DNA from: Escherichia phage vB_Eco_Jura | Length of the DNA stretch: 64,000 nt | Sequence record: LR999871 | Direction: 5' to 3' (one strand) | Shown: piece by piece, positions 35,291 to 55,651 of the stretch | How positions within the stretch are numbered: the first letter of the stretch is position 1 | How the letters are laid out: each line of letters starts with the position of its first letter | The notes under the pieces: generated by a model | What the model was told of the DNA's origin: nothing | What the model saw: only the letters and a program-made list of their open reading frames with translations | Databases searched by the model: none | Made by a program: the position numbers and the translations under genes

Positions 35291-41864
<6,574 letters not shown>

Positions 41865-46933: not shown

Positions 46934-47371
46934 ATGTCATATGAAATTGTAAAACATTGGACTTCTAAGGCTGGGCTGAAGGCTTGGGTATTGCTGGTAA
47001 ATGGTGGTAGCCATCATTGTGGTTATGTGGAAATACCAGAAGCATTACTGGATAAAAACTTCTATGACTATATATGTGATGATGAAGAAACACTTCATAT
47101 TACAGTACATGGTGGAGTTACCTATCAAGGTGTTCCTCAGTGGGCTGATGGGATTAAAGTCATAGGTTATGACTGTGCTCATGCAGGGGATAAACTGAAA
47201 TGTCCTAAACAATTCATTGGCTCTCTTAGGGAGAGACTCTATGAGGATTCTTATGGAGTATGGCGAGATGAAGAATACTGCATCAATGAATGTGAAAGCA
47301 TGGCAGACCAGTTAATTAACCTGATACCAAAATTAGGGTTTAACGATGAAATTCAGAACAGTAATGGTTAA
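46934..47371 (+). CDS. early protein (145 aa), His/Cys-rich, function unknown
   Basis: ATG-initiated; contains HHCGYV, VHGG, GYDCAHAGD, suggesting a metal site; no family recognised. Confidence 0.55.
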   Translation: MSYEIVKHWTSKAGLKAWVLLVNGGSHHCGYVEIPEALLDKNFYDYICDDEETLHITVHGGVTYQGVPQWADGIKVIGYDCAHAGDKLKCPKQFIGSLRERLYEDSYGVWRDEEYCINECESMADQLINLIPKLGFNDEIQNSNG

Positions 47372-49553: not shown

Positions 49554-49930
49554 AAGAAGTATTCGTATTTGGTTCTAACCTTGCTGGTGTACATGGTGCA
49601 GGTGCTGCAAAGACAGCATATAAGAAACATGGAGCCAGATGGGGTAAAGGGCATGGTCATTATGGTGACAGCTACGCTATTCCCACTAAAGATACCAATA
49701 TCAAAACGATGACTATTGAAGACATTCGTACATTTGTAAACGCCTTCATTGTCTATGCTGCTAATCATCCAGAACTTAACTTTAAAGTTACTCGTGTAGG
49801 TTGTGGATTAGCTGGTATTGATGATTCTGTTATGGCCTCTATGTTTGAAAATGCCACTGATAACTGTTCCTTTGACTTAGCATGGAAAAGTTACTTAGGG
49901 GATGATTTCAACTACTGGGGAACGTTCTAA
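49544..49930 (+). CDS. hypothetical protein with N-terminal glycine-rich loop (128 aa)
   Basis: ATG preceded by AGGAG; N-terminus VFVFGSNLAGVHGAGAAKTA...GDSYAIPTK looks like a beta-strand plus Gly-rich nucleotide-binding loop; family not resolved. Confidence 0.5.
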   Translation: MQMKEVFVFGSNLAGVHGAGAAKTAYKKHGARWGKGHGHYGDSYAIPTKDTNIKTMTIEDIRTFVNAFIVYAANHPELNFKVTRVGCGLAGIDDSVMASMFENATDNCSFDLAWKSYLGDDFNYWGTF

Positions 49931-49947
49931 CTCATACGTTAGGCAAT

Positions 49948-49968
49948 AAGCTGCTCCGCAGCTTTTGG
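49948..49968 (+). promoter_or_regulatory. hairpin promoter candidate 3 (virion-RNAP type), upstream of the RNAP subunit genes
   Basis: AAGCTGC-TCC-GCAGCTT (7-bp stem, 3-nt loop) then TTGG; core GCTCCGC-AG-CTTTTGG; 37 nt before the ATG at 50005. Confidence 0.45.
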
Positions 49969-50004
49969 TAATTAATATGTTTAACCAATTTTGGAGAATA
50001 TGCG

Positions 50005-50817
50005 ATGTCTACTATCGAACATCAGATGCACCTCGAAAAGCTGTACAACAAGAACCAACTGTTACCAAGAATGCGTCAGGAGTTTGAAGAAAACTCTGGT
50101 ATTGATTTCAAAGCCTTCTTTGCACATATAGGCATTGATTACAAATTTGGCATTGATGCAATGGTTCAAATGGCTCTGCATAAGCGAGCTGACCTACCAA
50201 CATTAGTTGGTACATTGCGTCATCATTGCAAATCTGCACAGGAAGTAGCAGACAACCTTTTTAAGATGGCAAGTGAGGATTGCTTTAACTTTGACCCGAC
50301 CATCGACAAGTTCATTGTCATTTATACAATCAGCGATGACGTACAGCATGAACTGGATTCATTTCAATATCCACTACCTATGGTAGTACGTCCTAAGCTG
50401 TTAACTAAGAATTATGGTACTGGGTACTTCACATGTAATAAGAGTGTGATTCTTAAGAAGAACCATACTGACGATGACATCTGCTTAGACCATCTGAACC
50501 GTATGAACAAGATTCCATTGTCTATCAATTGGGATGTAGCTCATATGGTTAAAAATGAATGGGCTAATCTGGATAAACCGAAAGAAGGTGAAACTCGTCA
50601 GGAGTTTGAAAAACGTGTACGTGCATTCCAGAAATATGACCGTACTGCACATGAAGTAATGGGTTTATTGACCCAGGAAGGCAATAAGTTCTATCTGACT
50701 CATCGTCCGGATAAACGTGGTCGTACCTATTGCCAAGGTTATCATGTAACATACCAGGGAACTTCTTGGTGTAAAGCCGTGATTGAACTTGCTGATAAGG
50801 AACTTATCAATGATTAA
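50005..50817 (+). CDS. phage RNA polymerase, small (N-terminal-type) subunit, 270 aa
   Basis: ATG preceded by GGAGAA. Assigned from its pairing with the catalytic-subunit gene downstream and the 270/404-aa sizes I recall for the N4 two-subunit enzyme; no catalytic motif expected here. Confidence 0.55.
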   Translation: MSTIEHQMHLEKLYNKNQLLPRMRQEFEENSGIDFKAFFAHIGIDYKFGIDAMVQMALHKRADLPTLVGTLRHHCKSAQEVADNLFKMASEDCFNFDPTIDKFIVIYTISDDVQHELDSFQYPLPMVVRPKLLTKNYGTGYFTCNKSVILKKNHTDDDICLDHLNRMNKIPLSINWDVAHMVKNEWANLDKPKEGETRQEFEKRVRAFQKYDRTAHEVMGLLTQEGNKFYLTHRPDKRGRTYCQGYHVTYQGTSWCKAVIELADKELIND

Positions 50818-51319
50818 AGACAGAATGCCTATGGGTTACTGGAACAAACCAATAGAAGAATTAGCAATAGCTCACCCAAAAGAAGCTGCTAATAGTGCTA
50901 GTGGTTACATACGTATATCCAGAAACAATAGGATTCATTATTTACATCGTTGGTTGTGGGAACAAAAACATGGTGCTATCCCTGCTGGACACACCATTGA
51001 CCATCTTAATGGAATCCGGACTGATTGCCGTTGGGAAAACATGCGTTGTATCCCTTGGGCAATTAACTTACGTAATAGTACAAAGCGTGCTGATAACACG
51101 TCAGGAGTAACAGGTGTCTCACTATGGAAATCTCCAAAAGGAGTGTTCTGGAGAGCAACTTGTACTGACAACTTAACAGGAAAACAACGATGTAAGGTGT
51201 TTTCCATAAATAAATACGGTTACAACTTTGCATTTGAATTAGCATGTGATGCTCGTGCCGATATGATTGAACGCCTGAACCAACAAGGTGCAGGTTATAC
51301 CGACCGTCACGGTCAATAA
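50810..51319 (+). CDS. HNH homing endonuclease with AP2-like DNA-binding domain
   Basis: Track start 50783 trimmed to the ATG at 50810 (after AAGGA, overlapping the upstream stop). HNH core GHTIDHLNGIRTDCRWENMRCIPWAINLRN; C-terminal SGVTGVSLWKSPKGVFWRA is AP2-like. Confidence 0.75.
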   Translation: MIKDRMPMGYWNKPIEELAIAHPKEAANSASGYIRISRNNRIHYLHRWLWEQKHGAIPAGHTIDHLNGIRTDCRWENMRCIPWAINLRNSTKRADNTSGVTGVSLWKSPKGVFWRATCTDNLTGKQRCKVFSINKYGYNFAFELACDARADMIERLNQQGAGYTDRHGQ

Positions 51320-51331
51320 TCCCTATAAGCA

Positions 51332-51352
51332 GGCTCTCCATAGTGGGGAGCC
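51332..51352 (+). other. 8-bp hairpin in the RNA leader of the catalytic RNAP subunit gene
   Basis: GGCTCTCC/GGGGAGCC (one G-U) with loop ATAGT, followed by an A/G-rich SD region rather than a T tract. Confidence 0.4.
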
Positions 51353-51373
51353 AAGAAGCAAGAGGAATATACA

Positions 51374-52588
51374 ATGCAAACTTTTACTGCCCGTGAATAT
51401 CTGAAAATTGACATTGCTAATAACTATGGTCTGGATAAAGAAGACTGGGATGACCGTATTGCATGGTTCGATAAGAATGAGAACAACCTGCTGAACCTTG
51501 TAAGAGAAGCTGAAGAACCAGCCCTGTTCTATGCTGGTGTTAAAGCATGGATGGACGTTAAGGAAGGTAAGCCAATTGGTTATCCTGTTGCACTGGATGC
51601 TACATCATCTGGTCTACAGATTCTGGCTTGCCTGACTGGTGACCGTAGAGCTGCTGAACTATGTAACGTTGTTAACTATCGTGATGAAAGTGGCAAAGTT
51701 AAACGTCGTGATGCTTATACAGTTATCTACAACAAGATGCTGAACACTCTTGGTAAAGGTGCTCGTATCAAACGTAATGACTGTAAACAAGCAATCATGA
51801 CTGCTCTGTATGGTTCAGAGGCTAAACCAAAGGAAGTATTTGGTGAAGGCATTATGCTCAACGTATTTGAAAGCACAATGAATGTGGAAGCACCTGCTGT
51901 ATGGGAATTGAATAAATTCTGGTTACAGTGTGGTAATCCAGAGGCTTTCGTATATCACTGGGTAATGCCAGATGGCTTTAACGTATATATCAAAGTAATG
52001 GTAAATGAAGTGGAGACTGTCCACTTCTTAGATAAGCCGTATGACTGTGTTCGTAAAGTACAAGGTACTGAAGAGAAGACTCGTATGCTATCTGCCAATA
52101 CCACCCACTCTATTGATGGCCTAGTAGTACGTGAGCTGGTTCGTCGTTGTGACTATGACAAGAACCAGATTGAATACATCAAGGCTCTTTGCAATGGTGA
52201 AGCTGAATATAAGACTTCTGAAAAGAACTATGGCAAAGCAATGGAACTGTGGGGCTACTATGAGAAGACAGGATTCCTGACTGCTCGTATCTTTGATTAT
52301 CTGGATTCTGAAACTATTAAATTAGTAAATACTCAGGACATTCTAGACCTGATTGAATCCATGCCTAAGAAACCATTCCATGTACTCACTGTACATGACT
52401 GCTTCCGTTGCCTGCCTAACTATGGCAATGACATTCGTCGTCAGTACAACAACCTGTTAGCTACTATTGCTAAAGGTGACTTACTATCTTTCATTATGAG
52501 CCAGGTTCTAGGCCAAGAAGTTACTATTGGCAAACTAGACCCGACTCTATGGGAAGATGTATTAGAAACCGAATACGCTCTATCTTAA
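51374..52588 (+). CDS. phage RNA polymerase, catalytic subunit (T7-like palm), 404 aa
   Basis: ATG preceded by AGAGGAA. T7 RNAP-type motifs in order: PVALDATSSGLQ (motif A, D...SG-Q), RNDCKQAIMTALYGS (motif B, R-x3-K-x7-YG), VHDCF (motif C). Confidence 0.8.
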   Translation: MQTFTAREYLKIDIANNYGLDKEDWDDRIAWFDKNENNLLNLVREAEEPALFYAGVKAWMDVKEGKPIGYPVALDATSSGLQILACLTGDRRAAELCNVVNYRDESGKVKRRDAYTVIYNKMLNTLGKGARIKRNDCKQAIMTALYGSEAKPKEVFGEGIMLNVFESTMNVEAPAVWELNKFWLQCGNPEAFVYHWVMPDGFNVYIKVMVNEVETVHFLDKPYDCVRKVQGTEEKTRMLSANTTHSIDGLVVRELVRRCDYDKNQIEYIKALCNGEAEYKTSEKNYGKAMELWGYYEKTGFLTARIFDYLDSETIKLVNTQDILDLIESMPKKPFHVLTVHDCFRCLPNYGNDIRRQYNNLLATIAKGDLLSFIMSQVLGQEVTIGKLDPTLWEDVLETEYALS

Positions 52589-52594
52589 TAACTA

Positions 52595-52627
52595 AGGCTA
52601 TCCCTACGGGGGTAGCCTTTATTTTTT
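52595..52627 (+). terminator. strong rho-independent terminator after the RNAP genes
   Basis: 10-bp stem AGGCTATCCC/GGGGGTAGCCT (one G-U), loop TACG, then TTATTTTTTT. Confidence 0.7.
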
Positions 52628-52672
52628 TAGTAAATCATAATGGATAGGCATTTAACCTATGAGGAAATTAAA

Positions 52673-53512
52673 ATGCCTGTTCTTAAAGTGATGTTCCATA
52701 AAGACACCAACGTAGCTACTGTACTGGATGCCAGTGGTAGCCTTAGTGATGGTTCCGTTGAGGTGGGTACTTTCCATCATCCTGATGAAACCTATCCCGA
52801 TAGTGTAACTATCTATCATGGTGTACGTGACCTGCTGTATAAACGCAGTGCTAAAGACCCATCTCAAACTGCTTCTTACCCAAATAACATTATCAATATG
52901 CAAGTTATCAGTATTGATATGAAGGCAACTCCTCGCCTGATTTTGGGTACTGCATTGCCTCGTGTAATCTCTACTATTGAAGGTAAAGATGTAACCTGGC
53001 ATGTAGATGTTGCTGGTGGTAAAGCACCATTGACTTACAAGTGGCAGTTTAAAGCTAATACTGTAGGTGCTGCTTTCGCTGATATTGATTCCGGAGAGAA
53101 TCCTACAGCTAAAACTGCAACTCTTATTAATCATGCAGTAACTGCTGAATCTGCTGGTACTTATAAAGTCATCGTTACTGATGCTAACGGTACTACTATC
53201 GAGAGTTCTTCTCTGCTGGTTGTAGGAGTTCAGGAACCACCTGAAGTAGCTTCTATTGTTGCTTATCCAAGTCCACTGGCTCTATCAGTAGCTGATGATA
53301 TTACCAATGGTAAAACAGTTAAGTTTTCTTCCCTGCCTGCTGGCTCTTTGATTGGTACTCTGTCCATTAAGACCCAGCCTGACAGTGGTAAAGCTACTGC
53401 TGAGATTAGTGGTAATGTACTGACAGTTAAACCTGTAGCCGCAGGTGACACTACTGTAGTGGTCACCAACGGAACCAAGGAAGTAACTGTTACGGTTAAT
53501 GTTACAGAGTAA
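52673..53512 (+). CDS. Ig-like domain protein, capsid decoration candidate (279 aa)
   Basis: Track ATG at 52640 has no SD; ATG at 52673 follows GAGGAAA. Thr/Val/Ser-rich beta-strand pattern (VTAESAGTYKVIVTDANGTT; VTNGTKEVTVTVNVTE) typical of Ig-like (BIG2-type) domains. Confidence 0.6.
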   Translation: MPVLKVMFHKDTNVATVLDASGSLSDGSVEVGTFHHPDETYPDSVTIYHGVRDLLYKRSAKDPSQTASYPNNIINMQVISIDMKATPRLILGTALPRVISTIEGKDVTWHVDVAGGKAPLTYKWQFKANTVGAAFADIDSGENPTAKTATLINHAVTAESAGTYKVIVTDANGTTIESSSLLVVGVQEPPEVASIVAYPSPLALSVADDITNGKTVKFSSLPAGSLIGTLSIKTQPDSGKATAEISGNVLTVKPVAAGDTTVVVTNGTKEVTVTVNVTE

Positions 53513-55294: not shown

Positions 55295-55651
55295 ATGGCT
55301 CAAGAAAAGAATCGTCGTCAGACACTTATCGAACGTATTCAGGCCAGAATCAAATTACAGGACTTAGGCTATACCGTTAATGGTCAGCCTAGTCTCTGTC
55401 ACATCTGGACTGGTTCACATTCAGGTAATGGACGTGGTGGGCAATATGGCAGGATTTCCGTGAATGGAGTTACCTCTGCAACTCACATTATTGCCTATAC
55501 CCATTATCATGGTTATATCCCCAATAAGATGCAAGTAGACCATCTCTGTAATAATCGTCTGTGCTGTAACCCTGAACATCTTGAATTGGTTACTCACCAA
55601 GAGAACCAGAGAAGAAGGGCTAAGCGTTCTAAATCTAAAGGAAATAAATAA
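55295..55651 (+). CDS. HNH endonuclease (second copy)
   Basis: ATG 2 nt after the upstream stop; HIWTGSHSGNGRGGQYGRISVNG ... VDHLCNNRLCCNPEHLELVTHQENQRR is a typical HNH nuclease core with a basic tail. Confidence 0.7.
   Translation: MAQEKNRRQTLIERIQARIKLQDLGYTVNGQPSLCHIWTGSHSGNGRGGQYGRISVNGVTSATHIIAYTHYHGYIPNKMQVDHLCNNRLCCNPEHLELVTHQENQRRRAKRSKSKGNK

Follow-up and report, generated by a model that had tools for sequence, protein, structure and literature searches.

Organization of the locus

The DNA analyzed here is a 64,000-nucleotide (nt) stretch of Escherichia phage vB_Eco_Jura (LR999871), referred to as the window, and coordinates are window positions unless another genome is named. The gene in question encodes an HNH endonuclease and is situated between the genes for the two subunits of the phage N4-type RNA polymerase II. 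Three consecutive open reading frames (ORFs) were found on the + strand, 50005-50817, 50810-51319 and 51374-52588, which encode proteins of 270, 169 and 404 amino acids (aa), respectively. The first, RNAP1, is the homolog of N4 gp15, the small polymerase subunit, and matched PHROG 2166, 'N4-like RNA polymerase' (E=1.4e-117), while the third, RNAP2, is the homolog of gp16, the catalytic subunit, and matched Pfam RNA_pol (E=3.6e-14). According to the annotations, gp15 and gp16 jointly constitute N4 RNA polymerase II. A T/DxxGR-type motif, PDKRGRTY, could be read in the RNAP1 sequence, as could motifs A (ALDATSSGLQ), B (KRNDCKQAIMTALYG) and C (VHDCF) in RNAP2. The initial annotation had described an endonuclease gene between a 270-aa subunit gene and a catalytic subunit gene with motifs A, B and C, an endonuclease ATG overlapping the upstream stop and no terminator separating the three genes, and each of these elements is present.

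The endonuclease ORF extends from the ATG at 50810 to the TAA at 51317-51319. It overlaps the end of RNAP1, which has its TAA at 50815-50817, by 8 nt (...ATC A ATG A TT AA). The frame can be extended upstream to a TTG at 50783 in the ORF listing; the start at 50810 is favored because the homologs begin with MK(D/E)RMPMGYWN. The sequence AAGGA (50797-50801, + strand), located inside the RNAP1 codons for K-E and 8 nt 5' of the ATG, may be the Shine-Dalgarno sequence of the endonuclease gene. At the same position N4 reads GAAAAAGAAGTA, which has no Shine-Dalgarno-like motif. No + strand terminator-like site was found within 50005-52588. The first such site, a hairpin and T-run 3' of RNAP2 at 52594-52619 (+ strand), would mark the end of the RNAP1-endonuclease-RNAP2 transcription unit, and terminators are annotated at the homologous place in phage vB_Eco_AL25 (AL25). 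The endonuclease gene is probably co-transcribed and translationally coupled with the early RNAP1-RNAP2 unit.

The endonuclease

The 169-aa protein matched PHROG 99, 'HNH endonuclease' (E=6e-30), and consists of two modules. The catalytic module, HNH_3 (50936-51070, + strand; residues 43-87), was recognized by Pfam with E=7.3e-17 and 61.2 bits, well over the cut-off of 24.8, and covered profile positions 1-45 of 46. D64-H65, N77, N86 and N89 go with this module. Among 33 homologs, D64, N77 and N89 were invariant and H65 and N86 were at least 90% conserved, residues by which the protein is classed as an H-N-N variant of the HNH family. The second module, an AP2-type DNA-binding domain of three strands followed by a long helix, occupies 51101-51283 (+ strand; approximately residues 98-158). 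The Pfam AP2 match (residues 112-153, E=4.5e-07) scored 30.5 bits, slightly under the 33.3 cut-off. An AlphaFold2 model built from the family alignment had a predicted local distance difference test score of 87, and the predicted fold resembles a solved HNH homing endonuclease and has the C-terminal AP2 domain. A sequence search of the PDB with the protein gave no match at E<=1. The earlier assignment as a free-standing HNH/AP2-type endonuclease is thus borne out for the catalytic module by a score above the cut-off and for AP2 by sequence and fold.

The possibility that the enzyme is encoded by an intron or intein was considered and rejected. The gene has its own start and stop codons, an Rfam scan of 49900-52700 found no intron or other RNA family at E<=1, and N4, which lacks the endonuclease gene, also has its polymerase split into two genes. 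With no intron-like RNA and with polymerase genes that are separate in N4, the endonuclease gene is therefore free-standing. The ratio of nonsynonymous to synonymous substitution rates (dN/dS) relative to the copy in a Moovirus-like metagenomic contig (L027) was 0.08, an approximate value since dS was 0.98, near saturation. The ratio points to strong purifying selection and a maintained function.

A foreign segment in an otherwise N4-type genome

The window belongs to Enquatrovirus (N4 species group) and aligns to AL25 over 64 kb with 99.4-99.7% identity. Only two length differences separate them, the endonuclease segment and a 127-bp duplication. There were 336 mismatches over approximately 63.4 kb (0.53%). 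A foreign segment of 630 nt (50732-51361) replaces 118 nt of AL25 and is composed of 78 nt of foreign RNAP1 3' end, the endonuclease gene and a Gamaleyavirus-type intergenic hairpin. The 78-nt tract on the left (50732-50809, + strand), the RNAP1 end apparently imported with the endonuclease gene, had 20 mismatches to AL25 (Poisson P ~6e-27). The 100-nt bin 50700-50799 contained 20 mismatches and the next densest bin only 8, and the 630-nt patch was the sole foreign segment in the 64-kb window as compared with AL25.

The origins of the parts of the patch could be traced by identity. The body of RNAP1 (50005-50731) is 99.45% identical to AL25 and SPSP and approximately 70% identical to L027. The left tract, in contrast, is 89.5% identical to L027 and a second endonuclease-carrying contig, L026, but only 72.5% identical to N4 and 72% to AL25. 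The endonuclease gene itself is closest to the L026/L027 copy, with 82.7% nucleotide identity. The last 28 residues of RNAP1 are CQGYHVTYQGTSWCKAVIELADKELIND in the window, CQGYHITYQGTSWCKAVIEFADKELIDD in L027 and SQGYHVNYQGTSWNKAVLEFAEKEVID in N4. RNAP1 is therefore chimeric, with an Enquatrovirus-type body and donor-type last 28 codons. On the other side, the 54-nt spacer that forms the right flank of the cassette (51320-51373, + strand) is a Gamaleyavirus-type intergenic region that contains a hairpin at 51332-51352 (free energy -17.7 kcal/mol, z=-2.9). Its identity to the RNAP2-proximal spacer is 96% for the gamaleyaviruses PhAPEC5 and PhAPEC7, 94% for pSb-1 and 92% for HK2, and it is unlike the N4 spacer. 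Alignment with AL25 resumes at 51362 with the RNAP2 Shine-Dalgarno sequence, GAGGA (51362-51366). RNAP2 is 99.9% identical to AL25 and SPSP, so that its coding sequence and Shine-Dalgarno sequence were untouched by the insertion. The mosaic flanks exclude a simple deletion of the gene in the relatives, and argue for import from an unsampled Gamaleyavirus/Moovirus-like donor.

Elsewhere, the differences from AL25 are far sparser than the 20 per 100 nt beside the endonuclease gene. The next densest clusters, at 36400-36499 (8 per 100 nt), 37700-37799 (7) and 47000-47099 (6), are located in a gp65-like structural gene and an early gene. The duplication is a perfect tandem repeat of 127 bp at 7389-7643 (2.0 copies, 100% match) that is single copy in AL25, and lies just 5' of a tRNA cluster (Asn 7700, Ser 7780, Thr 7874 and Pro 8302).

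The empty site in close relatives

A 2.8-kb query around the endonuclease ORF matched all 15 public Enquatrovirus records with 97.7-98.8% identity, and all of these lacked the endonuclease gene. Each match was split into two pieces that skipped approximately 512 nt. The records, from genomes that are 95-99% identical relatives, include N4, PMBT57, AL25, SPSP, OLB145, 3HA13, VEc25, AlfredRasser and the BEU phages. At this position they have a 47-nt spacer, which in N4 and SPSP separates RNAP1 from RNAP2. The comparison with N4-like relatives, which the initial annotation had proposed as a check, thus gave the opposite of the refuting outcome, an ortholog in all close relatives and no empty site. 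No decayed remnant of the endonuclease was found at E<=1 when the empty or otherwise occupied junctions were searched by tblastn.

Besides the window, two Logan contigs (L007 and L008) carry the gene, in the form of the exact window cassette. These came from two other sequencing runs and have a slightly different Enquatrovirus background. A mismatch-free zone between the window and L007 (50683-52213) was considered as a sign of a separate transfer within Enquatrovirus, and this was rejected, as the Poisson estimate (P ~0.008) is too weak.

The same family at the same junction in other phages

Homologs with 56-85% aa identity were found at the RNAP1/RNAP2 junction in at least eight other N4-like phage contexts, the sources being Gamaleyavirus UE phages, Burkholderia phage HN03, an IMG/VR contig (L013) and Logan, ENA and JGI contigs (L026-L032). 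In UE-M3, UE-S5a and UE-M6, HN03, L013, L026 and L027, L028-L030, L031 and L032, the gene begins on the stop codon of RNAP1. RNAP2 follows directly or past a few small ORFs.

In all divergent pairs the endonuclease protein was more conserved (56-85% identity) than the flanking RNAP1 and RNAP2 (42-76%). Between the window and L032, for example, the endonucleases are 69% identical and the polymerase subunits 52% and 53%. The non-nuclease gp17 found at the junction in PhAPEC5, PhAPEC7, ECBP1 and IME11 served as a control. It was never more conserved than both flanks; of six pairs, four had gp17 below RNAP1 and RNAP2 alike, and two had it between them. Moreover, L026 and L027, whose backbones are mostly 55-90% identical, encode an identical endonuclease protein within a shared block of approximately 900 nt centered on the gene. 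The block starts ~330 nt before the end of RNAP1, runs through the gene and the spacer, stops ~25 nt into RNAP2, and is 100% identical except for a dip to 84% (L026 2161-2210). Over most of RNAP1, L027 and Shigella virus Moo19 are also 97-98% identical, but the value falls to ~60% in the last ~120 nt. In place of the endonuclease gene Moo19 has an unrelated 95-aa ORF (gp26). The L027-Moo19 comparison reveals a second conversion tract, again at the RNAP1 3' end.

Three independent signatures of transfer are thus available, window vs AL25, L027 vs Moo19 and L026 vs L027, and in each of them the converted tract extends further toward RNAP1 (78 to ~330 nt) than toward RNAP2 (~40-65 nt). Three marks by which a homing gene is recognized were found: 1) presence/absence polymorphism, 2) co-conversion of the flanks, and 3) occupation of the same site by an element that is less diverged than its host genes. 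These patterns indicate that the endonuclease gene itself moves horizontally. The initial annotation had called it mobile-element-like cargo, a description that gained strength from the bounded patch, the occurrence at the same junction in other genera, the shared ~900-nt block and the signs of purifying selection.

L026 also has a second HNH_3+AP2 gene (1080-1556, 158 aa) directly 5' of RNAP1, so that in this contig RNAP1 is bracketed by two endonuclease genes.

Candidate target and proposed mechanism

The explanation considered probable is that an intact, free-standing HNH(N)-AP2 homing endonuclease gene entered Enquatrovirus from an unsampled Gamaleyavirus/Moovirus-like relative and spreads by break-induced gene conversion. 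The endonuclease would be made early in infection by co-transcription with the early RNAP1-RNAP2 unit. In a mixed infection, the enzyme would nick or cut the allele that lacks the gene. The likeliest place is the final ~80 nt of RNAP1 or the spacer, a presumed target region that corresponds to 5330-5459 of N4 (EF056009). The break would then be repaired from the carrier genome, and the gene and adjacent markers copied, a step whose expected pattern is seen in the tracts described above. The imported RNAP1 tail, which has 20 differences from the N4 allele in 78 nt, including a Ser codon changed from AGT to TCT, would probably confer self-immunity. The outcome is a chimeric but functional RNAP1 and a replaced spacer, including its hairpin.

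Several observations bear on the position of the cut. Because the tracts extend further toward RNAP1, a cut on the RNAP1 side is favored. The foreign tract, the candidate region for target-site immunity, begins right past the codons of the conserved PDKRGRTY motif. Enzymes of this kind generally tend to target conserved coding sequence, a tendency that the start of the tract beside these codons fits. The candidate Ser codon, in a G-T-S-W/Y motif, is TCT in the window and AGT in N4. All nine endonuclease-free genomes compared (N4, AL25, Moo19, PhAPEC5, PhAPEC7, ECBP1, IME11, VLCpiP4b and CU10EC) have AGT or AGC at this codon. The nine HNH-bearing genomes and both genomes that bear an EndoVII-like gene all have TCN or a non-Ser codon.

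Other observations weigh against this explanation or limit it. Phage E20 is an exception to the codon pattern, as it has TCA at the Ser codon and no endonuclease gene; its allele may be a resistant one that remained after loss of the gene. The RNAP1 tail of E20 (L037 700-822) is nearly identical to that of the endonuclease-bearing L013, including the TCA. The association of AGY and TCN with absence and presence of the gene involves few independent lineages and is put forward as a hypothesis. The actual donor is unsampled, the closest copy being that with 82.7% nucleotide identity, and the dN/dS value is approximate for the reason given. Cleavage at this junction, by a nick or by a double-strand break, and the target position are inferred; nuclease activity of the 169-aa protein, a target site within the region named and exclusion between phages are plausible. 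Lastly, the junction varies among many Enquatrovirinae also where nuclease genes are absent, and ordinary recombination must therefore act there as well.

Other occupants of the junction

Across the Enquatrovirinae (L009-L012, L033 and L034-L038) the RNAP1-RNAP2 junction is a spot of plasticity that is occupied by small ORFs of 36-98 aa. PhAPEC5, PhAPEC7 and ECBP1 have the 53-aa gp17 at this position, IME11 has gp17 and an extra 79-aa ORF, VLCpiP4b and E20 have two ORFs each, and CU10EC has a 36-aa ORF. The junction of pSb-1 and HK2 contains a 204-aa EndoVII-like endonuclease (phrog_1035), and an EndoVII-like endonuclease is apparent from the annotation at the junction of PGN829.1. Pfam gave no match in the small junction ORFs or in the 204-aa protein of pSb-1, which PHROGs assigns to 'endonuclease VII'. 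Two possible relationships among the occupants, that Moo19 gp26 is a truncated endonuclease and that PhAPEC5 gp17 is related to the EndoVII-like protein of pSb-1, were rejected.

A hairpin lies just 5' of the RNAP2 Shine-Dalgarno sequence in every lineage, although its sequence differs (spacers of the window, L001, L003 and L027). It is AGCC-AAUA-GGCU in N4, GAGCC-AAAU-GGCUC in UE-M3 and GGGC-UUAA-GCCC in L027, and has a 9-bp stem in the window and most gamaleyaviruses. Since these hairpins lack a T-run, none is an intrinsic terminator. They could have a role in RNA processing, RNA stability or translational control.

Alternative explanations

The first alternative is that the gene is passive cargo, that is, the junction, with conserved polymerase sequence on either side, is a general hot spot of recombination into which the gene was swapped by ordinary homologous recombination in a co-infection, the enzyme being inactive or directed to another site. 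The many unrelated small ORFs at the same junction lend this some weight, since they show that exchange happens without an endonuclease gene. It is nevertheless unlikely. Sweeps were seen only in endonuclease cassettes, as in the L026/L027 block and in protein identities that exceed those of the flanks, while gp17, the control at the same place, never exceeded both flanks in conservation. The catalytic residues are intact, the approximate dN/dS is low, and no other part of the 64 kb is foreign.

Somewhat less probable still is the proposal that the enzyme is a weapon of competition or a domesticated factor, kept for disabling, in mixed infection, the RNA polymerase II gene of a rival N4-type phage or for some other service, with its own spread secondary. 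The position in an early operon without a terminator, from which early expression is expected, the likely target in an essential polymerase gene and the strong purifying selection would all suit such a function, and there is a precedent in gp210 of PhiPA3, which acts against the RNAP gene of PhiKZ and gives a competitive advantage (PMC11620839). From sequence alone, the proposal is compatible with plain homing and inseparable from it. However, the patchy spread, in none of 15 public Enquatrovirus and three of ~30 public Gamaleyavirus records, is unlike that of a fixed beneficial gene.

A more speculative idea concerns the origin of the junction itself. The split of a T7-like middle RNA polymerase into RNAP1 and RNAP2 would be the scar of an ancient invasion by an endonuclease gene, with the present HNH-AP2 lineage as its descendant or successor. 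The model for this idea is MobE, which is reportedly involved in a 'genes in pieces' event in the nrdA of an Aeromonas phage. At the junction the start of the HNH-AP2 gene invariably falls on the RNAP1 stop codon, in phages that range from those of E. coli to those of Burkholderia. The idea is considered decidedly improbable.

Finally, presence of the gene in the Enquatrovirus ancestor with later loss from N4, AL25 and their relatives has nothing specific in its favor beyond the general frequency with which homing endonuclease genes are lost, and was rejected as effectively refuted by the mosaic of the flanks, since deletion cannot yield 20 substitutions in the adjoining 78 nt or a Gamaleyavirus-type spacer, the tract is nearer to a Moovirus-like contig (89.5%) than to N4 (72%) in an RNAP1 that is otherwise 99% N4-type, and the empty junctions hold no remnant detectable by tblastn at E<=1.

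Other endonuclease genes and significance

HNH endonuclease genes are commonly noted in N4-like phages (PMC3670811, PMC6027278), and N4 itself was described as free of selfish elements (PMC3670811). The window has a homolog of N4 gp22 (55295-55651, 118 aa) that matched HNH_3 (E=8.6e-20) and zf-His_Me_endon and has no extra DNA-binding domain. This HNH_3 protein is conserved in N4 and AL25, despite the description of N4 as lacking such elements (PMC3670811). A different HNH homing endonuclease gene (AL25 70160-70705), which N4 lacks, interrupts the DNA polymerase gene in AL25 and, by annotation, in PMBT57. The window begins, at 1-521, in the DNA polymerase fragment 3' of this AL25-type gene (AL25 70054-70977; L006 25054-25977). 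With the gene split in AL25 and the window starting in the downstream fragment, a second endonuclease gene is probably located just outside the window in the same genome.

The presence of this family at the RNAP1/RNAP2 junction is already known by annotation in UE-M3 and HN03. New are the finding of a member in the N4 species group, the mapping of the conversion tract to which RNAP1 owes its chimeric state, and the evidence of recent transfers. As a probable case of homing the locus is clear but ordinary and will not surprise specialists, and the conceptual gain is small because this kind of element is well known. N4 is the model for phage transcription by three polymerases. The window and AL25, near-isogenic with 99.5% identity, form a natural pair set apart by a single endonuclease cassette whose conversion tract is mapped, and so offer a convenient system in which homing, co-conversion and exclusion between phages could be measured for N4. 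The comparison yields a concrete candidate target within an essential polymerase gene and indicates that the essential subunit RNAP1 tolerates an exchange of its C-terminal 28 residues. The RNAP1-RNAP2 junction as a variable site is also relevant to the taxonomy and engineering of N4-like therapeutic phages.

Comparison with known systems

The HNH homing enzyme I-HmuI of Bacillus phage SPO1 (PDB 1U3E) differs from the window endonuclease in that it is encoded by an intron in a DNA polymerase gene and has a C-terminal helix-turn-helix rather than AP2. The two proteins are 14-18% identical, with no PDB match at the sequence level. PhiPA3 gp210 is an HNH endonuclease that nicks the RNAP subunit gene of a co-infecting relative, and silent recoding of the target is protective (PMC11620839). 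In that case the enzyme is encoded by an intron of a jumbo phage and the target belongs to a multisubunit virion RNAP. Moreover, its competitive effect was measured, while the window case is known from sequence alone.

The genetic arrangement resembles that of T4-type SegA-G and MobE, which are also free-standing genes between essential genes and spread by break repair with co-conversion of flanking markers. In intronless homing in T4 the cut site is in the neighboring conserved gene and not at the point of insertion (PMC2988022, PMC2790892). The Seg proteins, however, are GIY-YIG enzymes and MobE is an HNH enzyme without AP2, and their activity has been demonstrated, whereas that of the window endonuclease is deduced from comparative patterns. 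The HNN-AP2 or 'IPA-HNH' genes of the Xanthomonas phages Xp10, OP1 and Xop411, of vibriophage ICP1 and of others have the same architecture, an N-terminal HNH (HNN, no Cys dyads) and a C-terminal AP2. They are free-standing, variably present in close relatives, near essential genes and at the boundaries of exchange (PMC2248197, PMC10448857). They differ in that their sequences are distant and their sites, among them DNA polymerase, ribonucleotide reductase and terminase, do not include the N4-like RNA polymerase II junction.

The UE phages and HN03 have members of the same family at the same place. The gene at the junction is not discussed in the publications on these phages and is known there by annotation. 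ORF16 of Burkholderia phage vB_BpP_HN03, a phage of another genus and host with three extra small ORFs before RNAP2, is 59% identical over its full length, with the same position and domain order. In the Gamaleyavirus phages UE-M3, UE-S5a and UE-M6 (UEM3_067), the protein is 77.5% identical over its full length. UE-M3 is also of another genus and kept the N4-type spacer hairpin, but the gene likewise starts on the RNAP1 stop codon and encodes the same order of domains as in the window.

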